Assembly (NCBI GenBank): GCA_036676985.1
Contig: JAKFBU010000028.1
Span: forward strand, 1-64,000
Length of the DNA: 64,000 bases
Direction of reading: 5' to 3'
Source: Candidatus Sericytochromatia bacterium
GTDB taxonomy: Bacteria > Cyanobacteriota > Sericytochromatia > S15B-MN24 > UBA4093
Part shown: piece by piece, positions 17,118 through 26,551 of the stretch
Numbering within the stretch: position 1 is the first letter of the stretch
How the letters are laid out: each line of letters begins with the position of its first letter
Made by a program: the position numbers and the translations under genes
The notes under the pieces: generated by a model
What the model was told of the DNA's origin: nothing
Seen by the model: the letters and a program-made list of their open reading frames with translations, nothing else
Databases searched by the model: none

Positions 17118-17224
17118 TCCAGCAGCTTCATACTGACGTGGTCCCATGATTTATGGTCTGAGGAGAAATTGAAGGTCCCGTAACTTGCTAAATTAGTTCA
17201 AGACTCTACGTGCGCGCTACTCGT

Positions 17225-17258
17225 CCCCCGCCTGCATTTGAGGCGGGGGCTGTTTTTT
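17225..17258 (+). terminator. Intrinsic terminator
   Basis: CCCCCGCCT-7-AGGCGGGGG followed by T run. Confidence 0.6.
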
Positions 17259-17329
17259 CTCCGAAACAGTGGGGGGCCTCGGAGTGGCTCGAGCTTGTGC
17301 TGACCCGAGGTTCAGGGGGATGTCAATAT

Positions 17330-18676
17330 TGCATGCTTCACGGCCAGGGCCGTGTAAGTCGCGCCATCGGCTTTACGGGTACTGCCGAGGTGAGGGCTGC
17401 CCTGGGCTTGGCCTGGGGCGACCCGGGCATCCCGAATAGCTGCTTCAGCGACTTCCAGGCCAGGCTCCTGAAGTACGACCCTGAGTGCGAGGCGTTCAAC
17501 CAGATGCTGTTGAGCCAGGGTCTTATCAAGAAGCGTGAGGCGCTGATCGTGGACGCCAGCCACATGGAGGCCAACGCCGCGGCGCACAACCCGAGGGTGC
17601 TGATCCGAAAGGCTACCCAGGCCATCCTCCGTCAGGTCCGCAAGGAGCGGCGCCATCTCTACGACGACTTGGCCAAGGCCATCGATCTCACCCCCGAGAC
17701 CAAGTTCTCGAGTGGACCCGAGTATTTCCTGTTGCCCGAGGCAGAGCGGAACGAACGCTTCAGCAAGGCCGTGACCGAGGCGCGCACGGTGATCGAGAAA
17801 CTGGAGCGTAAGAAGGTGAGTCCGGCCATCCGGAGTCAGGTCGAGCTCTTGAAGGTCATCCTGGATGAACGCTCGACCGACGAGGACGAGCCTATCGATC
17901 CGGACGACGCCCCACCCGACCGGGTCACCAGCCACCGGGATCCGGACGCGCGTTGGGGAGCCAAGGGAAAGGACAAGTACTTCCACGGATACAAGCGCAC
18001 GATCCTGACCACCAAGGACCACGGTTTCATCGCTAACGTGGACGTGGTAGCGGGCAACGCCACCGACAGCACACCGTTTGAAGCGATGCTCGAGGACAGC
18101 CAGGAGGTGTTCGGGCTCGAACCCGAGAAGGTCATTGGCGACGCGGCCTACGGGAGCCTGGCCAACCACCGCAAGCTCAAGGTCATGGGCATCCAGATGG
18201 TGGCCTCCCTCAAGCCCGCCCCCAATCCCAAGGGGCGCTTCTCGCGGAATCGCTTCAGCTACGATGCCGACAAGAAGTCGCTCTCGTGCCCCGGCGGCCA
18301 GACCACGCGAGAAGCCTATCCCAGCGCTGACGGCGAGGGGTTGACCTACCGATTCGCGGCCCACCAGTGTGGCCCCTGCAAGCACCGGGACGAGTGTACG
18401 CGGGGCGACTTCCGGAGCGTGAAGGTTGGCGAGACAGTGAAGGACATGGACGCCGCCATCGCCTACGGCAAGACCGACGACTACAAGGCGGACATGAAGG
18501 CCCGACCGGTGATCGAGGGAAAGCATTCCGAACTCGTGCGCTATCACGGCGGCCGGCGAACGCCCTACTGGACACTGTAACGAGTCTTTGCCGGAGAAGT
18601 CTGGCGCTGCCTGGTGGTGAACATCAAGCGGTGGGCGAAAGTAACGGCAAATAGCCCAATTCCGGCCGCCATATAG
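17330..18676 (+). pseudogene. IS1182-family transposase, 5'-degenerate with premature stop
   Basis: IVDASHMEANA, DPDARWG.K, GYK, GDAAYG, CPGG/C..C..R..C, R..IEGK; TAA at 18578-18580 followed in frame by RVFAGEVWRCLVVNIKRW...stop at 18676. Confidence 0.85.
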
Positions 18677-18910: not shown

Positions 18911-19019
18911 TACGGGCACCCGAGAGCACATAAGCCCTAAACTTCGCTACTTGGCAGGGGCTAAATCGCAAGAGTAATACGCGATCAAATCATTCTTCTC
19001 CGAACTTAGAAATCGAAAT

Positions 19020-20087
19020 TCATATTTTTGAATTCATGTTGGAGTTGATTTCTTTTAGTGCGGCAATAGTATCAATTCCAAGCCGCTTTAGTGACTCAAA
19101 TTCATCCTGCGATAAATAGGAGTCGATCTCATGTAGCTCTCGGTTAATTAATGGTGATAGCTGGCCAATCGCATCTTTTACGGAATTTGGTATTATGCCT
19201 GCATTGTTCAAGTGTCGAGAAAGTTGCCCGAGAGAAACGACCCGTGTGTTGGAAAACAATGCCGAGGCAGTTGCAAGCGAGCGCAACTCTGACTCAAGGC
19301 GAATCCGGATCAAGAGCAAAGCACTCTTGATGTCAAAATTATATATTTGAAATTCTTTTTGGATAAGTATTGATGGTCCGTATTTACTTTCAAGTTCAAC
19401 AGCTGATTCAAGTGCTGCTTTGTATGAGAAAGGCTCCCTAAAAAGGCGAATCTGACGAAATAATGTGCTTGATGAAGTAAATATCGATGCAGCTGCAATT
19501 GCTATTGAGGATATTGTAAAAAAGTCGAATACGTTTTTGTTTTGTTGCATGGGTCTTGAAAGCATTATGCTTTTTATGCCTGATAGTCTGCCGTTAATTG
19601 AAACTGGATCGTCGGATGGATTGTTTACGATAAAGCTCTTAAAAGAAAACCAATCTCCGGGATTTAAGAGTAGGGGTTGTAGCTCAAGTCGGTTTCCGTG
19701 CGAAAGATATAGTTTTGGGGAGAGATCTTTTGGACTCTTCTCGTTGACCACAGGTGGTTCCGGAAGCTGTCCAGAAAAATTGAAGACCAATGGGGCATCG
19801 AAGTCGGAACGATGGATTGGTTGGTTGCCATCATTTTTTACAACAAGCTGTAATGCAGTTAGCGACGATATCGTAGCGTCACCATACGTGATTCGAAGTC
19901 TTGAGATGTCGGTATTTCCAGCGATAATTGGAACCTCAGAGGCGAGAGAAATACTAAGTGAGCGCTTGTCTTGGCCGAGATAGAAAAAATAAAGTGAAAT
20001 GAATACTGACGGCACGATTGCTAGGACAATAGGCCACCAATTTTTTTTAAGAAATTCGATAAATTTTTCCACTTTTAGACCTACCAT
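19020..20087 (-). CDS. Membrane protein with C-terminal HEPN-like helical domain
   Basis: TM near residues 17-37 and 190-210; LLIRIRLESELRSL...L..L...GII...AI..L..LINRELH pattern. Confidence 0.6.
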   Translation of the reverse strand: MVGLKVEKFIEFLKKNWWPIVLAIVPSVFISLYFFYLGQDKRSLSISLASEVPIIAGNTDISRLRITYGDATISSLTALQLVVKNDGNQPIHRSDFDAPLVFNFSGQLPEPPVVNEKSPKDLSPKLYLSHGNRLELQPLLLNPGDWFSFKSFIVNNPSDDPVSINGRLSGIKSIMLSRPMQQNKNVFDFFTISSIAIAAASIFTSSSTLFRQIRLFREPFSYKAALESAVELESKYGPSILIQKEFQIYNFDIKSALLLIRIRLESELRSLATASALFSNTRVVSLGQLSRHLNNAGIIPNSVKDAIGQLSPLINRELHEIDSYLSQDEFESLKRLGIDTIAALKEINSNMNSKI

Positions 20088-20129
20088 GAATTCATGCCTG
20101 GGGTTTAGCCAGGGAGTGTTATATCCGAG

Positions 20130-20810
20130 CTAAATATAAAGAAACTTCAATTGTTCTGGCCAAAGTCTAGGTGAGCCGGCGGTCAATCGATATTCGAGAA
20201 ATTTGAGCATTGCTTTGGATGATTGAGAAAGGTGCTTAATCTTATAGGTGAGCCCAAAACTAGGGTTCTCAACGATTTCTGAGTAGGTCATATTTGTAGC
20301 TCGACCACTAGGATCATCGGGAATAAATATAGTGTCCCAATAAAAGTCTCTATTTCCTCGGAGGCCTTCAGCTATCCTCCCCTGGGTTACACCCTCGAAT
20401 ACGGATACACTTTGACCGTCACAATAAGCGACGACGGCCTTCGCACAGGCCCGACGGTTTATGGATGAAGTTTCGCGTACAAAGTTTTCCTTAAGGGTGT
20501 TCCACATTGGCTTTGTGAGCCCGCCAGGAAATCCTTGTTCCAAATATTCCTCAAAAATTAACCCTGCATGCTCAACAATACAAGGGACTCTTATTTTCTT
20601 ATACGCATCTATTACTTCTGCTATTACTAACTTCTCTAACTCAACTTCTAACGTCTCTTTTATAGATACTTCTCTGATGTCGAATTCAAATACTTCCGAA
20701 ACGGTTTTACCGTTGTTTAGTGTGCAATTTTTTTGGAATTCAAGATTTTCTTGTTTCTTGAATCTACTTGAGGTGACATAGGTTATTCTGTGCTTGGGGC
20801 TATTATACAT
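20130..20810 (-). CDS. Divergent HAM1/ITPase family protein (KomB-like)
   Basis: VTSS..K..E, IVEHAGL, FPGGLTK, FEG.TQGRI, FYWDTIFIP, TYSEI, LSQSSKAM align to the HAM1 scaffold. Confidence 0.85.
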   Translation of the reverse strand: MYNSPKHRITYVTSSRFKKQENLEFQKNCTLNNGKTVSEVFEFDIREVSIKETLEVELEKLVIAEVIDAYKKIRVPCIVEHAGLIFEEYLEQGFPGGLTKPMWNTLKENFVRETSSINRRACAKAVVAYCDGQSVSVFEGVTQGRIAEGLRGNRDFYWDTIFIPDDPSGRATNMTYSEIVENPSFGLTYKIKHLSQSSKAMLKFLEYRLTAGSPRLWPEQLKFLYI

Positions 20811-21643
20811 TACGCACCTCGCAGTTCCCGGAGGATATTTGTTATATCCTCCTCCATACTGCCACCTCTAATCGGAATGACGTCGATATTTCGAGCCCTG
20901 AATAGCTCAATTTCAAAATTCGATGGATCAGGGACTACAATATAGGCCCTGCGCCCTGTTCCAGGTAATGGTGAATTCTGAAATTTTTCATTTACAAGCC
21001 GGAATAGGTATGAGACGTTCCAATCTCTGAAACTATACCCCAGAAATAAGATTACTCTACCAAGTACATCAGCACTTAATCGGTAATCCATAGGCGAGTC
21101 CAATTTCAATCTCGTTTCGTAATCAGATTCGGATAAGACCATCGTTTCAGGGTGGTTCATGTCGCCATGAAATTTAATTATTTCAGCAATATCTGTCTGA
21201 AAACCCATATCTTGTTCCATTGCGACTACGCGAAATTCACGTTCATTCAGCTGAAAACTGCGCTCAATGAAGTTATCGTAATTAGTTGTATAAAATAGGT
21301 TGCACTTATTAAGCAAGGCGAGTTCAGTGTGGATGCTAGAGCTTAATAGGGCCTGTGACGGGGGATTCATATTTGAGTGAAGCCAAATAGTTAGCGGCGT
21401 AAATCCTCGGCTAATTATCCTAAAATATTCGAGTATTTGTAAATCAGTACCGCGAGCTCTAAGCAGTTCCGGCTCAGAAAAACCCATAATCCTTGCAGCT
21501 TCGTCTACGAGTTCGGTCCAATTAGGCCCCGTCTTAGTCATGCCATCCAATTCCCAAGAGACGGACGCAGAGATACCGGCTCCCACAAATACAATTAAGC
21601 GGCCTTCATGGTATCGAGACTTCAGATCGACAGGACATCTCAT
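20810..21643 (-). CDS. SIR2-like (SIR2_2) NADase-type protein (KomC-like)
   Basis: FVGAGIS, PNW..L, TTNYD, KFHGD, VLSESDY, LFLGYSFRD. Confidence 0.9.
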   Translation of the reverse strand: MRCPVDLKSRYHEGRLIVFVGAGISASVSWELDGMTKTGPNWTELVDEAARIMGFSEPELLRARGTDLQILEYFRIISRGFTPLTIWLHSNMNPPSQALLSSSIHTELALLNKCNLFYTTNYDNFIERSFQLNEREFRVVAMEQDMGFQTDIAEIIKFHGDMNHPETMVLSESDYETRLKLDSPMDYRLSADVLGRVILFLGYSFRDWNVSYLFRLVNEKFQNSPLPGTGRRAYIVVPDPSNFEIELFRARNIDVIPIRGGSMEEDITNILRELRGA

Positions 21644-21645
21644 AT

Positions 21646-22251
21646 CTAAGGCTTTCGTGCAATTATCCGCGTCATGGAATGCAAATGTTGTATCCGATTA
21701 TGCGGGTGCGTTTCAATAAGGTCTGAGTCCGAGCTTTCGAGAAGATGCCAGTCACTGAATAATTCTACGTATGCGCTATGGGGAATGAGACATGGATCAA
21801 AGTCTGGATGTGCTGTTTCGAGCTCCTGGTGTCGATCGTTGAAGGCACAAAGGACGACATAGCCACCCTGTCGCGTCGCATTTTTTATCTTTTTGGTGAC
21901 GCTTTTGATCTCGAATGCTGTGGACATGCAGTGAAGAAGTCCATATGCAATAACCACATCATACATTCTCTTAATATAAGCATCCCTTATGTCTAACACT
22001 TCCCAGTCTATAGGTATATCTTTCCAATTCAATTTTGCGTTAGATATTGCAAAATGAGAAACGTCTAATGCTCTTACTGCGGCGCCTTTTTGATGACAAT
22101 AGACTGCATTTTTCCCTTCACCGCAGCCGATATCTAGTATATGTGTGTTTTCTAGTGGCGTATAGTGTTCAAGTTTCTTGAGGAGGCTTCCTGGATCAGT
22201 GCCCCAAAAACATGGACAGACTTCATAGCCTTTGTCATAGCCTCCAGACAT
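21646..22251 (-). CDS. Class I SAM-dependent methyltransferase (TehB-like)
   Basis: ILDIGCGEGKNA, ALDVS, YDVVIAYGLLH, GGYVV; ATG 22251 lies 1 bp after upstream stop. Confidence 0.9.
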   Translation of the reverse strand: MSGGYDKGYEVCPCFWGTDPGSLLKKLEHYTPLENTHILDIGCGEGKNAVYCHQKGAAVRALDVSHFAISNAKLNWKDIPIDWEVLDIRDAYIKRMYDVVIAYGLLHCMSTAFEIKSVTKKIKNATRQGGYVVLCAFNDRHQELETAHPDFDPCLIPHSAYVELFSDWHLLESSDSDLIETHPHNRIQHLHSMTRIIARKP

Positions 22252-22252
22252 C

Positions 22253-23785
22253 TTACTTCCTTTCAATGCCTATTTCTTTCATTAGTTGGTTTATTGCTTT
22301 GTGGTACATAGATTTTCCGATCCAGTTGTATAAAACGGCGTCGGAATCCGAGATCATATCTTGAACATCTTGTTCAACGGGGGAGTTGCGTAGCATTAGG
22401 TAGTTTTCTATATGTATAGCCTGGTCTTCCCTTTCGCTATAAAGGTTATATGCCAAGTCTGGCGGGGCGTATACATAGAGAAGGCCGATCTTTAAGGGGC
22501 CTGCAATTCTACGTAATGAATCTAGGGTCGATTTTTGGCGAATTCCGTCGATAAGTACGCGCTCCGAACCAGAGGAGATGGCTTCTTCATAGAGTGCTTC
22601 GGCGAGTATTTCAGGCCCCTCGTCCGCTGAAATAAAATTCCAGGCAATTTCCTGAAATCTTCCTCGGGGTGTTTCTGGAACCGGTGCAATGTTAAGGATC
22701 CTTGCAAGCGTTCGCCCGCTGTTTACTTCAGTATATCCATATTTCGTACTAAGAATTCTTGTTGCTTCTGATTTGCCGCTGCCGATGCCTCCAATTACGC
22801 ATAAGATATGAGGGGGCTTTAATTTGGAGCGTTTTTGTATGCGATAGAAGGGCTGTGATGAGGTGGCCTTCGCGAAGAAAGTCCGGAGGCAGAGTTGCGA
22901 CCAGTATTCAAAATTCCAGAATAAATATGGGTCTGATGATGGATCTAACCACCGCAAGTGGGTAATCGACGTTTCACCGCGCCGCGGATTATCCCACTCT
23001 ATGTCGTCGCTTACATCATATTTGAAGACGAATCCGATGTGTTTCCTACCAGTAGACGAAGAGTCATCATTAATAATGCCAACCATTTTTAGGCGGTTTG
23101 GATCATTGAGTAAGTAAATGTCCTTTTGTGGTAATTTAAGTTCTTCGATAAGCTCGCGAATTGCGTTATGCTTAATCCCAAAATCTGCGTACGAAAAAAT
23201 GTTTCTGTCACGCTCTGTTACGTGGCCGCCAAAGCCAATACAATGGCTTCCTCTAAGATATTGTTCGACCCGATTGAAATTCCCGCGTTTATAGGCCAGC
23301 ACGCGGTCGCCTTTAGTTACCATTATGTAAGTTATAACCTGTTTATAGCTTTCATCTTGTTCCGCAGTAAGACGGTCAATATATTTAAATGGTTGGGCGG
23401 TCATGAGCGTTGAGTAAAGGCTTTCCCATTCTCTCATAACGCCTTGAGAACGGCTGTTGGCTAATAGCCATTCTGATGGAATAGCTAGCACGATCTCCGG
23501 TATCCGCTTCGGCTTTAATCGTGGTGCTTCATATATTGTTGTAGAGTCTGAAGCTAAGCGCCGAAGGAAGAATATGCCAGGCTCTGTTCTGACAAAGGCT
23601 GACGCCAATCCCTTTCGAATTATGTCAGTGCAAAGTTTGGAGCTTAATGTTTGATGGGGCGCCTTACCTGTGATTTTGTCTGAAAAGAGGTTGTTTCGGA
23701 ACGCAAGTTCGATCATTTCCTTACAACTCATTGGCCGCTTGTGCTGTTCGAGAAGGCGCTCTGCTACGTCAAGAAATTCGCTCAT
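22253..23785 (-). CDS. HARE-HTH + NUDIX-like (YmaB/COG4112-type) + P-loop nucleotide-kinase fusion
   Basis: FLDVAERLL...GKAPHQTLSS...F.RTEPGIFFL; AEQDESYKQVITY, GFGGHV, RELIEEL, INDD, WSQ; GGIGSGKS, TPR..FQ, IDGIR. Confidence 0.85.
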   Translation of the reverse strand: MSEFLDVAERLLEQHKRPMSCKEMIELAFRNNLFSDKITGKAPHQTLSSKLCTDIIRKGLASAFVRTEPGIFFLRRLASDSTTIYEAPRLKPKRIPEIVLAIPSEWLLANSRSQGVMREWESLYSTLMTAQPFKYIDRLTAEQDESYKQVITYIMVTKGDRVLAYKRGNFNRVEQYLRGSHCIGFGGHVTERDRNIFSYADFGIKHNAIRELIEELKLPQKDIYLLNDPNRLKMVGIINDDSSSTGRKHIGFVFKYDVSDDIEWDNPRRGETSITHLRWLDPSSDPYLFWNFEYWSQLCLRTFFAKATSSQPFYRIQKRSKLKPPHILCVIGGIGSGKSEATRILSTKYGYTEVNSGRTLARILNIAPVPETPRGRFQEIAWNFISADEGPEILAEALYEEAISSGSERVLIDGIRQKSTLDSLRRIAGPLKIGLLYVYAPPDLAYNLYSEREDQAIHIENYLMLRNSPVEQDVQDMISDSDAVLYNWIGKSMYHKAINQLMKEIGIERK

Positions 23786-23821
23786 GAGTAAAGCCTTTGA
23801 ATAGGATGATCTATGATGTCA

Positions 23822-23888
23822 TTAATTTCATACCCGGCTCTAACACTAAGTTTTCCTCTTAATGTCAAGTTTTAGTTAATGAAATTAA
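23822..23888 (-). promoter_or_regulatory. Putative island promoter/operator
   Basis: Perfect TTGACA on minus strand (23863-23868) between a 10-bp inverted repeat TTAATTTCAT / ATGAAATTAA; no clean -10 at 17 bp. Confidence 0.35.
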
Positions 23889-24010
23889 ATTACATCGGAG
23901 TTATTTTGAGCGCATGAACTCCCCGGGCGCGGACAGTACAGATAATGAGGTCAAGTTCGCAGGCTGTTTGGGCAAATGCTGTCCTGCCTTGAGACTCGGA
24001 CTGCCTTATT

Positions 24011-26551
24011 CTAGAAGAGCCAGGGCTGGGTAAATTTGAAGGTGACACCCAGGAGATGCCGGTTGGCCCAGTCCGGATAGACGGTGTTCCGGTACAGGTT
24101 GAGCTTGTACGTCAGGGCAGTCGTCTCAGTCAGCGGCACCGACAGGATCGACTCGTTGTCGATCAAGAGGCCGTCCTTGGCGAAGTCCGGGGTGGCGAAG
24201 AGCTTGAGGTCGGTCGACAGGTTCAGCCAGAACAGCGTCTGCTTCCACACCGCCTGGAACGTGCCACCGGTCTTGTCCGGCTGCTTCGTGTCGAAGAAAT
24301 GGTGACGGTACTCAATACCTTCCCGGAGCTCCAGGCCGAAGGGAAAGGGGTGGCTCACGCCCGAACCGAGCTGGCCCAGGAAGTAGCGCGGGTCCTGGTC
24401 GTTGTTGAAGCGCGTCGTCAGCGTCAGGGTCGCGTAGGGCTTGGCCACCGACCACAGGATGTCGCTCTTGTAATCCGTGACGAGCTGGATCTTGTCGCTC
24501 GAGATCTGGCTCTTGCCGTCCGAGAGCTGGTCGCTGTGATACGAGAGGTTCAGCGTGTTGTCCAGCTCGTGCGGGCCCCAGTTGGTGCCAAGGTCGTACT
24601 TCAGGTCACCGCCCCAGCTCATGCCGCTCTTGTCGGCCTTCCAGGCCAGGTCCGGGTAGCGCTTGGCGTCGGCCTCCACCTGCCGGCGCTGTAGGTCGGT
24701 GGTGAACTGCACGGACGACTTCCAGAAGGGGATCTGGTAGTAGTCCGGGAAGCCCGTGGGCGTGACCTCGAGGCCCTTCTTCGCCTGGTTGCGGAAGTAG
24801 CGCATGACCGCGCGGCGCACCGAGATGGTCAGGACGCGGTTGGGGCCGCTCGCCAGCACCTCCAGGCCCGTGTGCTTGCCGACGGCCGCCGGATGGGTCG
24901 TCGCGACCGTGTAGTTGGCCTTCTTCTCCAGGACGCGGCCATTCACCCAGACGACCGAGTCCTTCTCCGTCACTCCAGCGAAGAAGGCCTGTCGCCCGCG
25001 GGCCGCGTAGAAGAGGTCCGAGAGCTGGGAGCCCGTGAGCTCGACGACGGCCACCGCGTCCTCCCAGGGCATGGAGTAGAAGAGGCTGCGCGGCGAGTTC
25101 ACCGGGCCGAAGACCCGCTCGTTGTGGAAGAACGAGCGCGGTACCAGGCCCACCTCGGCGCGGGCCTGCAGGCGGACGATCTCGGGCACGAGCCCCATCA
25201 CCTGGTCCGAGGTCAGGTTGTCGGCGAGCTTCGCCAGGTTGCCCTGCTCGTCGGTCCAGGCCTTGGCAGCCAGGCGCTTGGTCTCCAGGCTCAGCTTCAT
25301 GACGGGCGAGCTCGTGGCCTCGGCGATCTTGTTGGGCAGGGTCTCCTCGTCCAGGCGGATGAGGCCCGGCTCGATGCGCGCCAGCTGATAGTCGCCTTGC
25401 GGCGAGGGCTCGAAGGTGAGGCGGGCCTTGCCGATGGCCGTGCCGAAGCCGCCCGCGTGCAGCGCGCGCTTGCCGTCCACGCCCACCACCTCATGGATGG
25501 CGATCGCCGTCGCGTTCGCCGTGTTGAACCCCCCGAGCACCAGGTCCACGCCCGAGTCGCGGGTGAGGAGCGCCATCTCGCGGTCCAGGGTGAGGTGGGT
25601 CATGGCCACGATGATGTCCGGAGTGGCCGCCCGGCGGATCAGGGGCACCCAGCGCGCGACCGCCTCCATGGGCGGATCGATGGTGACGCGCGAGATTTCC
25701 GAGAAATCGATGTACGGCCGGGCATCCGGGTCCACCAGCCCGAGCACCGCCACCTTGAGGCCGCCCCGCTCGAAGAGGGCGTAGGGGCGCGCGAGCGTCT
25801 GGTCGGTCTTGGCCCAGCGGACGTTGGTGAGGACCGCCGAGGCCGAGGACTCGCGGATGCGCTCGCGCAGGACGTCGAGGCCGTAGTTGAAGTCGTGGTT
25901 GCTCGGCAGCCAGGCGTCGTAGCCCATGTGGTTCATGGCCTCGACCATGGCCTTGCCCTTGGAGGCCGCCGAGACCATGTTGGGGCCGAGCACGTTGCCC
26001 GAGCTGAGCAATAGCGTGGGCAGGCCGTTCTTTCGCTCCTTCTCGATCAGGGCCGCCGCGCGCGGCAGGCCGCCGACGATCTTGGGCCGGGACGAGTAGG
26101 GGTCGAGCTTGACCGGGTCGAAGAGCCCGTAGGAGTCGTTGGTGTGCAGCACCATGAGGGTCTTGGGCCGGGGCACGACGACCTTGGGGGGCGCCAGGAG
26201 GTCGTCGAGCGGGTTCGAGGCCGCTGCCGACGCCGTAGCCGGCACGGAGCCCGAGGCGTCGGGCGAGAGGCTGGTCGTTGCCAGCGACGGGCGGATGCCA
26301 CCCAGGGACACCTCGAGCAGAGGCTCGGGCGTGGGCACGGCGGCAACGCTGGGGCTCGCCTCGACGACGGTGGCCATGAGGCTGGGGCTCGCGACGGCCG
26401 CCGGAGCCTGGACGCTCGCCGTCGCCTCGCTGGCGGGGCTGGGGGCGGGCGTGGCCGCGGGGAGCGTCTGCGCGCGGGCCGAGCCCACGGCGAGCGCGAA
26501 CAGGAAGAGGAGCGCGACGAGGCGCAGGGCGGGAGAGGCTAGGACAGGCAT
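24011..26551 (-). CDS. 5'-nucleotidase-like (degenerate metallophosphoesterase) fused to C-terminal outer-membrane beta-barrel
   Basis: Signal peptide, Pro/Ala linker, LHTND, GGLPR, NHDFNYG, VVELTGSQL; amphipathic strands ending in WLF. Confidence 0.75.
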   Translation of the reverse strand: MPVLASPALRLVALLFLFALAVGSARAQTLPAATPAPSPASEATASVQAPAAVASPSLMATVVEASPSVAAVPTPEPLLEVSLGGIRPSLATTSLSPDASGSVPATASAAASNPLDDLLAPPKVVVPRPKTLMVLHTNDSYGLFDPVKLDPYSSRPKIVGGLPRAAALIEKERKNGLPTLLLSSGNVLGPNMVSAASKGKAMVEAMNHMGYDAWLPSNHDFNYGLDVLRERIRESSASAVLTNVRWAKTDQTLARPYALFERGGLKVAVLGLVDPDARPYIDFSEISRVTIDPPMEAVARWVPLIRRAATPDIIVAMTHLTLDREMALLTRDSGVDLVLGGFNTANATAIAIHEVVGVDGKRALHAGGFGTAIGKARLTFEPSPQGDYQLARIEPGLIRLDEETLPNKIAEATSSPVMKLSLETKRLAAKAWTDEQGNLAKLADNLTSDQVMGLVPEIVRLQARAEVGLVPRSFFHNERVFGPVNSPRSLFYSMPWEDAVAVVELTGSQLSDLFYAARGRQAFFAGVTEKDSVVWVNGRVLEKKANYTVATTHPAAVGKHTGLEVLASGPNRVLTISVRRAVMRYFRNQAKKGLEVTPTGFPDYYQIPFWKSSVQFTTDLQRRQVEADAKRYPDLAWKADKSGMSWGGDLKYDLGTNWGPHELDNTLNLSYHSDQLSDGKSQISSDKIQLVTDYKSDILWSVAKPYATLTLTTRFNNDQDPRYFLGQLGSGVSHPFPFGLELREGIEYRHHFFDTKQPDKTGGTFQAVWKQTLFWLNLSTDLKLFATPDFAKDGLLIDNESILSVPLTETTALTYKLNLYRNTVYPDWANRHLLGVTFKFTQPWLF

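Follow-up and report, generated by a model that had tools for sequence, protein, structure and literature searches.

A HARE-HTH/NUDIX/kinase fusion protein in a Kongming-like SIR2/HAM1 cassette of Candidatus Sericytochromatia, a candidate signal-making and sensing subunit

Organization of the cassette

The DNA analyzed here (the window) covers positions 1-64,000, forward strand, of contig JAKFBU010000028.1 from Candidatus Sericytochromatia bacterium (GCA_036676985.1). It encodes a fusion protein of 510 amino acids (22253..23785, minus strand, ATG start), which consists of a HARE-HTH domain, a NUDIX domain and a nucleoside monophosphate (NMP) kinase-fold domain. The fusion gene is the first of four genes in a cassette that ends with homologues of the sensor and the effector of the Kongming defence system. 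The fusion protein is discussed here as a candidate for the signal-making side of this cassette.

The cassette is located on a low-GC (guanine-cytosine) island. The GC content of the window, like that of the genome, is ~67% and falls to 36-48% across positions ~19,000-24,100, a region containing five open reading frames (ORFs), all on the minus strand. The second gene of the cassette (21646..22251, minus strand; ORF to 22266) encodes a TehB-like small-molecule methyltransferase of 201 amino acids, dependent on S-adenosylmethionine (SAM). The ATG at 22251, one base past the stop codon of the fusion gene, is its probable start, and its homologues begin at the equivalent methionine. The third gene (20810..21643, minus strand, 277 amino acids) encodes a predicted KomC-like SIR2 NADase. 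The fourth (20130..20810, minus strand, 226 amino acids) encodes HAM1, a predicted KomB-like sensor in which His81 takes the place of the catalytic acidic residue; its start and the SIR2 stop share one base.

Domains of the fusion protein and its partners

An earlier note on this DNA, made from the letters alone, had described the fusion as a HARE-HTH domain, a YmaB-type NUDIX domain with a RELIEEL string and a P-loop kinase with TPRxxFQ and DGIR motifs. This architecture is borne out by Pfam, profile comparison, Foldseek and AlphaFold2. The AlphaFold2 model, based on a 24-sequence alignment, has a mean predicted local distance difference test score (pLDDT) of 88.6 and a predicted template-modelling score (pTM) of 0.74.

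The N-terminal winged-helix domain (residues 4-76; 23558..23776, minus strand) belongs to the HARE-HTH family PF05066 (E 1.7e-7, 31.9 bits versus a cut-off of 25.9) and is present in most homologues. It is followed by a NUDIX domain (residues ~92-316; 22838..23512, minus strand) of the TM1382/YmaB type. Its counterpart is TM1382, deposited as a ‘putative Nudix hydrolase’ (PDB 3e57), which it matches over residues 92-316 by sequence (E 3.5e-9; profile E 7.9e-12) as well as by fold (Foldseek E 3e-11, template-modelling (TM) score of 0.80-0.82 on the target). The canonical Nudix box is a 23-residue motif, GX5EX7REUXEEXGU. In the fusion, the RELIEEL string provides R210, E211, E214 and E215, and the glutamates of REx2EE are kept. 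The spacing departs from the canonical box: a long insert, also found in TM1382, lies between the GGH stretch (186-188) and the helix carrying R210 and REx2EE. Because of this insert, the isolated domain scores only 16.3 bits against the Pfam NUDIX family PF00293, under its cut-off of 21.1. The TM1382/YmaB proteins are stand-alone proteins of ~200 amino acids, whereas the NUDIX domain of the fusion is flanked by the HARE-HTH and kinase domains.

The C-terminal P-loop domain with an NMP-kinase fold (residues ~322-505; 22271..22822, minus strand) carries a Walker A motif (G332..G337, K338, S339), the TPRxxFQ motif (R374, Q378) and DGIR at 413-416 (G414, R416). Among solved structures, it is closest to SSO1041, an adenylate-kinase-related protein with bound AMP (3lw7/3h0k), with a profile E of 3e-12 and a Foldseek E of 4.8e-8 (TM 0.85). 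Adenylate kinases AK1 and AK5 and UMP-CMP kinases are the next Foldseek matches (E 1e-7 to 1e-6). The domain shares a GxxGSGKSE P-loop and DG[IV]R with SSO1041/UPF0200, although SSO1041 is an archaeal stand-alone protein and the identity is just 18-19%. Two further resemblances proposed in the earlier note were not recovered. The likeness to dephospho-CoA kinases is insignificant (PF01121 E 0.2; TIGR00152 14.3 bits versus a cut-off of 65.55), and tblastn with residues 318-510 recovered nothing at E <= 0.01 from 50,697 phage records that would relate the domain to phage deoxynucleoside monophosphate (dNMP) kinases.

The catalytic motifs are strongly conserved. In a set of 78 homologues from metagenome loci, R210, E211, E214, E215, G332, S336, G337, K338, R374, Q378, G414, R416 and R452 are each occupied by the residue of the window protein in at least 97% of the sequences, and the Nudix-box residues R210, E211, E214 and E215 are invariant in the 24-sequence set. 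The NUDIX and the kinase domain therefore both look catalytically competent. PADLOC contains no model matching the fusion of the window. Its ‘dCTPase’ model was considered and set aside as too weak: three of the 24 family members match it weakly in the kinase part (best E 5.5e-5), and a four-domain relative described below, P0191, matches it at 1.8e-10.

The methyltransferase encoded next to the fusion matches the Pfam families TehB and Methyltransf_25. Its structural model (pLDDT 92.4) has E. coli TehB (2xva) as best fold match (E 6.6e-13, TM 0.76). A complex prediction for the fusion and the methyltransferase, run without controls, scored 0.00, which weighs neither for nor against a complex. 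Within the methyltransferase family, C12, C43, H107, C108, H148, H158, H182, H189 and H191 are invariant, and a C-terminal HPHN..H.HS.TR motif is present. This unusual set of cysteines and histidines may point to a bound metal or to a particular pocket for the substrate.

Many NUDIX enzymes are ADP-ribose pyrophosphatases, and one explanation would make the fusion and the methyltransferase an accessory against counter-defence. The SIR2-HAM1 pair would then sense a signal made elsewhere, while its partners would destroy the NADase products, ADP-ribose by the NUDIX domain and nicotinamide by methylation, to block NAD+ rebuilding by the phage. ADP-ribose and nicotinamide are indeed the compounds that the phage NARP pathways are described to use (PMC12774641). 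This explanation is nevertheless very improbable. For NUDIX domains of the YmaB/TM1382 type, such as this one, hydrolysis of dNTPs (deoxynucleoside triphosphates) is the sole reported activity, and the methyltransferase is TehB-like, with no link here to nicotinamide methyltransferases. Moreover, the kinase domain, the HARE-HTH domain and the DNA adenine methyltransferase that adjoins the fusion gene in most relatives (see below) would all be left unexplained.

In Kongming, KomA deaminates dAMP, a dNMP kinase from the phage and nucleoside diphosphate kinase (NDK) from the host complete deoxyinosine triphosphate (dITP), and dITP binds KomB and activates the NADase KomC (bioRxiv 10.1101/2024.12.20.629578). 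The last two genes of the cassette are clear relatives of this sensor-effector pair. KomC is the best solved relative of SIR2 (PDB 8zsf, E 3.1e-37), which also matches the Pfam family SIR2_2 (E 8e-27). Its invariant residues H159 and D207 align to H146 and D194 of KomC, reported to be catalytic and NADase-specific, respectively (PMC13454610). HAM1 has KomB as best relative (PDB 8zsg, E 2.1e-23; profile E 2.7e-40 over the full length), and its His81 aligns to the inactivating His65 of KomB, within a stretch E80-H81-A82-G83-L84 that is conserved in 47 sequences.

The HAM1 pocket differs from that of KomB at five positions (R8 to S14, N9 to S15, H11 to F17, T66 to A82 and Q141 to Y157), and Y157 is kept in 46 of the 51 complete HAM1 proteins. 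H11 and Q141 of KomB are described as the hydrogen-bond partners of hypoxanthine O6 (PMC13454610, section 9). Since the pocket is unlike that of KomB, the messenger may not be dITP. The substitutions are suggestive of a different, more hydrophobic base, although they are not decisive in view of the FQWD loci described below. A KomA deaminase was not found either: Pfam gave no deaminase family in the five ORFs of the island, and the flanks of the metagenome loci discussed in the next section (80 in all) contain no conserved deaminase cluster.

Conservation, Dam linkage and modularity

A metagenome scan with the family alignment provided the best 80 loci of 209 relatives, to which all locus counts refer. 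Partners were counted by tblastn with the window proteins, a match anywhere in the locus being scored and only loci with enough room being used as denominator. The methyltransferase was found in 64 of the 65 loci with at least 700 nucleotides (nt) downstream, SIR2 in 56 of 58 (at least 1.6 kb) and HAM1 in all 47 (at least 2.3 kb). All four genes are present in 55 loci, in the order fusion-methyltransferase-SIR2-HAM1 in 51 of them, and the genes abut or overlap. The fusion and the methyltransferase are inherited with SIR2 and HAM1 as one operon. Two exceptions are L077, with unrelated genes after the fusion, and L072, in which an IS3-type insertion lies inside the methyltransferase gene.

Some additional genes recur around the cassette in these loci. 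An AAA_28 P-loop protein of ~250 amino acids is encoded upstream of the cassette or of its Dam gene in seven loci (L038 275-1030 and six others), and a ~150-amino-acid protein without family occurs in eight loci, directly after HAM1 in five. Both are absent from the window and are possible accessory genes. In five loci (L037 2705-6046 and four others), a 1,114-amino-acid protein with HEPN_Swt1 and DUF499 domains is encoded ~0.9 kb upstream of the cassette, which suggests a defence-island setting.

A frequent upstream neighbour was found by clustering the flanking ORFs. It is a D12-class (Dam-type) DNA N6-adenine methyltransferase (PF02086, E 2.9e-43; a second type 8.6e-14) directly upstream of the fusion gene. 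Of the 59 loci that extend 900 nt or more upstream, 49 encode this enzyme (46 on the same strand) and ten lack it. The Dam gene lies within 600 nt of the fusion start in 44 loci; a strict limit of -60 to +300 nt leaves 37. In L025 and L083, where the methyltransferase-SIR2-HAM1 part lies upstream, Dam still adjoins the fusion, and in L079 it is convergent with the fusion. HARE-HTH domains are known as fusions to restriction endonucleases of N6-adenine-modifying restriction-modification systems and to N6-adenine methyltransferases, and section 16 of PMC4738411 proposes them to be modified-base readers. The fusion described here shares the N-terminal family with those proteins and is paired with an adenine methyltransferase in most relatives; its cassette differs from the nuclease fusions in that the predicted output would be nucleotide chemistry and an NADase instead of a nuclease. 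As Dam is usually directly upstream in the relatives, adenine methylation is the most likely mark to be read by the HARE-HTH domain. Its proposed role as a DNA-modification reader gains indirect support from this linkage.

The cassette of the window has no Dam gene of its own. The low-GC region upstream of the fusion gene (23786..24010, minus strand), presumed to be the promoter site, extends to a host gene ending at 24011; a consensus promoter scan of this region found no site. It contains a single GATC (23805-23815, minus strand) between an AT-rich, TTGACA-bearing stretch and the fusion start, to which no weight is given as it is one case. A D12 methyltransferase of native GC (64%) is encoded on another contig of the genome (C39:179225-179944, L096) and is 38% identical to a cassette-linked Dam. 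The Dam-less cassette may lean on this native enzyme.

The frequent Dam gene also invites an explanation in which the alarm comes from marked self DNA. Breakdown of the Dam-methylated chromosome by the phage would free N6-methyl-dAMP, the kinase domain and NDK would convert it to N6-methyl-dATP, to be read by HAM1, and the NUDIX domain would clear the background. Besides the Dam linkage, the AMP bound by the nearest kinase relative and the more aromatic HAM1 pocket at the two O6-contacting positions agree with this, and the HAM1 family takes its name from sensitivity to an N6-substituted adenine analogue. On the other hand, neither the TehB-like methyltransferase, a more constant partner than Dam (64/65 versus 49/59), nor the DNA-binding domain has a role in it, and the cassette of the window lacks its own Dam. 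An alarm of this kind is improbable.

Other combinations of the same domains indicate that the fusion is modular. The NUDIX domain alone was searched against 1.84 billion representatives, giving 3,032 matches at E <= 0.001, 513 at 1e-10 and 57 at 1e-30. The best 150 of these were grouped by size: 59 have the likely three-domain size (460-600 amino acids), seven the likely four-domain size (730-800), 29 the likely two-domain size (260-345), 17 are likely intermediates or fragments (345-460) and 38 are likely stand-alone domains or fragments (under 260). The seven proteins of four-domain size (P0189, P0191, P0194, P0205, P0218, P0257 and P0259) are 738-753 amino acids long. In all five that were scanned, the NUDIX-kinase part is followed by a class I SAM methyltransferase at the C-terminus; P0191 aligns to residues 4-487 of the fusion with an E of 7e-55.

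A two-domain form is found on plasmids of Leisingera aquaemixtae and Agrobacterium tumefaciens (L094 6001-8609 and L095 6001-8618, respectively). There, the gene of a 308-amino-acid HARE-HTH-NUDIX protein overlaps the start of a gene encoding a CHAT protease of 561-564 amino acids. The first two domains are 24-28% identical to the fusion over residues 1-218 to 1-305; the partner is the CHAT protease, and kinase, methyltransferase and SIR2/HAM1 are all lacking. The surroundings of the pair on the Agrobacterium plasmid include genes for TIR, caspase and additional CHAT proteins. The pair has the appearance of a distinct two-gene conflict module, not described so far, that shares the sensor head of the fusion. 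A fusion common outside SIR2/HAM1 contexts would have counted against the reading of the earlier note; this does not hold for the three-domain form, tied to HAM1 in 47 of 47 loci, whereas the two-domain form does occur outside such contexts, beside CHAT.

The effector side varies as well. Five loci pair the fusion-methyltransferase module with a very divergent SIR2/HAM1 pair (SIR2 clade support 1.0, stem 1.6), whose HAM1 has a KomB-like FQWD in place of FYWD. The fusion genes of these five FQWD loci nest among those of the FYWD loci, so the Dam-fusion-methyltransferase side has stayed constant while its effector pairs were exchanged.

These forms bear on a further explanation, that of the earlier note, in which the two enzymatic domains of the fusion have opposing activities. 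The kinase domain would build an activating nucleotide and the NUDIX domain would destroy it or its triphosphate; this futile cycle would keep SIR2-HAM1 off until DNA binding by the HARE-HTH domain tips the balance during infection. NUDIX enzymes typically cleave the nucleoside triphosphates (NTPs) that an NMP kinase and NDK would rebuild, both active sites are invariant, and both lie in one confidently predicted chain (pTM 0.74). In addition, by the logic of the Kongming preprint, a host-encoded kinase needs an insulator against autoimmunity. However, the source of the monophosphate substrate is left unexplained. The kinase-less HARE-HTH-NUDIX proteins beside CHAT proteases argue for a NUDIX role that is independent of opposing a kinase. 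Furthermore, a methyltransferase gene adjoins the fusion gene in 64 of 65 loci, and some relatives have one fused to the kinase, so that NUDIX and kinase can equally be successive steps around a methylation of the monophosphate. A futile cycle is considered doubtful.

A near-full-length protein search gave 364 homologues at E <= 0.001, the best 120 of which are 44-53% identical across 94-100% of the query. Taxa named among the homologues listed include Nitrospiraceae, Pirellulales, Tepidisphaeraceae, Corallococcus and Nannocystis. In metagenomes, the family is frequent in soil, peat and marine samples. The full-length fusion was found in none of 60 genomes related to that of the window, where the matches are confined to the HARE-HTH part alone and one weak match in the kinase region. 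Likewise, a single-protein scan of genome contigs gave HARE-HTH-only relatives alone, in four loci. Five loci on viral contigs (L098-L102) carry relatives of the middle domain with the NUDIX part alone (32-36% identity); the viral contigs scanned gave neither the full fusion nor the four-domain form.

The drop in GC, an insertion sequence (IS) and the absence of the full protein from the 60 related genomes mark the island as acquired. The IS is represented by a DDE transposase gene (17210-18580, plus strand; DDE_Tnp_1, DDE_Tnp_1_6) of native-like GC that adjoins the island; it is a possible insertion route or a later arrival. No tRNA genes were found near the island. On the other side, the GC-rich host gene (24011-26551, minus strand), the upstream neighbour of the fusion gene, encodes 846 amino acids with a signal-peptide-like N-terminus and weak matches to a 5'-nucleotidase C-terminal domain and PGA_cap (E ~3e-3).

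The fifth ORF of the island (19020..20087, minus strand) lies outside the conserved cassette, 42 nt downstream of HAM1. It encodes an orphan protein of 355 amino acids with an N-terminus that is hydrophobic by eye. Pfam, PADLOC and NCBIfam gave no noteworthy family for it, and its best Atlas score is 0.79, under the lead threshold of 0.9. The orphan was rejected as a fifth component of the cassette, as tblastn found a counterpart in none of the 80 loci; it could be a passenger without relation to the cassette or an addition specific to the lineage.

Such a genomic setting is difficult to reconcile with a role outside defence, as a housekeeping or regulatory enzyme of the nucleotide pool (for instance, a regulator of the dNTP/dNMP balance whose HTH is autoregulatory) that is simply carried along by the island. 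YmaB is reported in a ribonucleotide reductase operon of Bacillus (PMC5960316), and no defence-library model matches the fusion, both of which would fit such a role. However, the fusion is missing from all 60 related genomes and lies on an island of foreign GC beside an IS. Moreover, it is almost always linked to KomBC-like genes, with the effector pair swapped around it, and defence-type genes are neighbours elsewhere (HEPN_Swt1/DUF499 for the three-domain form; TIR, caspase and CHAT for the two-domain form). A housekeeping role is thus extremely improbable.

A candidate pathway from nucleotide chemistry to NADase activation

Our preferred reading, held with moderate confidence and resting on sequence and fold comparison, is that the fusion would be the signal-making and sensing subunit of a Kongming-type abortive infection system. 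Host-encoded parts would replace KomA and the phage dNMP kinase by a sequential pathway to a methylated dNTP, gated by the HARE-HTH domain. In its first step, the YmaB-type NUDIX domain would cleave a (deoxy)purine NTP to the monophosphate, the most likely substrate being dATP. The methyltransferase would then methylate the base of this monophosphate, in analogy to the deamination of dAMP by KomA, the kinase domain would re-phosphorylate the methylated dNMP, and the host NDK would complete the methylated dNTP. Binding of this nucleotide to the HAM1 sensor would switch on the SIR2 NADase, and NAD+ depletion would abort the infection. As a gate, the HARE-HTH domain would tie this chemistry to DNA by reading the adenine-methylation state (self versus incoming DNA), with the pathway being on only during infection. 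Such a gate would be needed because the system would be self-sufficient, and HARE-HTH and Dam are the obvious candidates for it.

Several observations are consistent with these steps. A preliminary dNTP pyrophosphohydrolase activity has been reported for YmaB, with conversion of dATP to dAMP being proposed (PMC5960316). The nearest solved kinase relative, 3lw7, is AMP-bound, and the methyltransferase is of the TehB small-molecule type. Sections 9 and 12 of the Kongming preprint (bioRxiv 10.1101/2024.12.20.629578) describe a preference of KomA for dAMP and the borrowing of the monophosphate-to-diphosphate step from the phage; as the cassette encodes its own kinase, that phage trigger would not obviously be needed. 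With neither KomA nor a phage-type kinase encoded, replacement of the phage dNMP kinase (DNK) step by the self-encoded kinase is a reasonable inference. The order NUDIX, methyltransferase, kinase appears to be the most economical model.

In comparison with Kongming of E. coli, the cassette keeps homologues of KomB, with the inactivating histidine, and of KomC, with the NADase histidine and aspartate, as well as the translational coupling and the location on mobile DNA. It differs by having no KomA, whose place is taken by a methyltransferase and by the NUDIX-kinase fusion, which has a DNA-binding head and is usually accompanied by Dam in the relatives. According to section 11 of the same preprint, KomBC modules without KomA associate with nucleotide-metabolizing genes, including an NTPase and a SAM-dependent methyltransferase, partners that it names in general terms only. 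The KomBC-type effector is already known, and the cassette would be a widespread candidate variant of Kongming with another signal-making side.

A number of points weigh against this sequential pathway. The order of the three enzymatic steps is our inference. The methyltransferase fused in the four-domain relatives is just generically like that of the window (25% identity, E 3e-4). Since the fusion genes of the FQWD loci are nested among the others, the exchange of Gln for Tyr alone cannot define a new ligand, and the messenger could still be dITP. Regarding the gate, Dam is not obligatory, being absent next to the window cassette and in ten of the 59 loci, and section 29 of PMC11037411 states that HARE-HTH may sense cytosine instead of adenine modifications. 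Finally, the loci include near-duplicates (e.g., L052/L053 and L042/L043), so the counts overstate their independence.

A wider version of the sequential pathway can be put forward only tentatively. The cassette would be a self/non-self test in the style of restriction-modification, wired to a nucleotide messenger. Dam would mark the host DNA, and the HARE-HTH domain, on unmarked or degraded DNA, would release the NUDIX-TehB-like-kinase line. The resulting methylated dNTP, a messenger not described so far, would activate the KomBC-type NADase, and the HARE-HTH-NUDIX head would be portable, also driving CHAT proteases.

No paper was found describing the cassette, the HARE-HTH/NUDIX/kinase fusion, its link to Dam or the four-domain and CHAT-linked forms; fig. 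S19 of the Kongming preprint and Aravind and Iyer 2012, which lay outside that search, may show the operon or the architecture. Genomes of named myxobacteria (Corallococcus, Nannocystis) also encode the family, which may make work in culture feasible.

Kongming uses a base-modified nucleotide, dITP, as an immune messenger and depends on a phage kinase for it. The cassette described here keeps the sensor-effector pair and appears to swap the signal-making side. If the proposed pathway is true, a methylated nucleotide would represent a second class of base-modified messenger, and abortive infection could be triggered without an enzyme borrowed from the phage. DNA methylation marks would be directly linked to nucleotide signalling. 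It would also provide the first functional context for YmaB/TM1382 NUDIX domains, for UPF0200-like kinases and for bacterial HARE-HTH domains outside nucleases.

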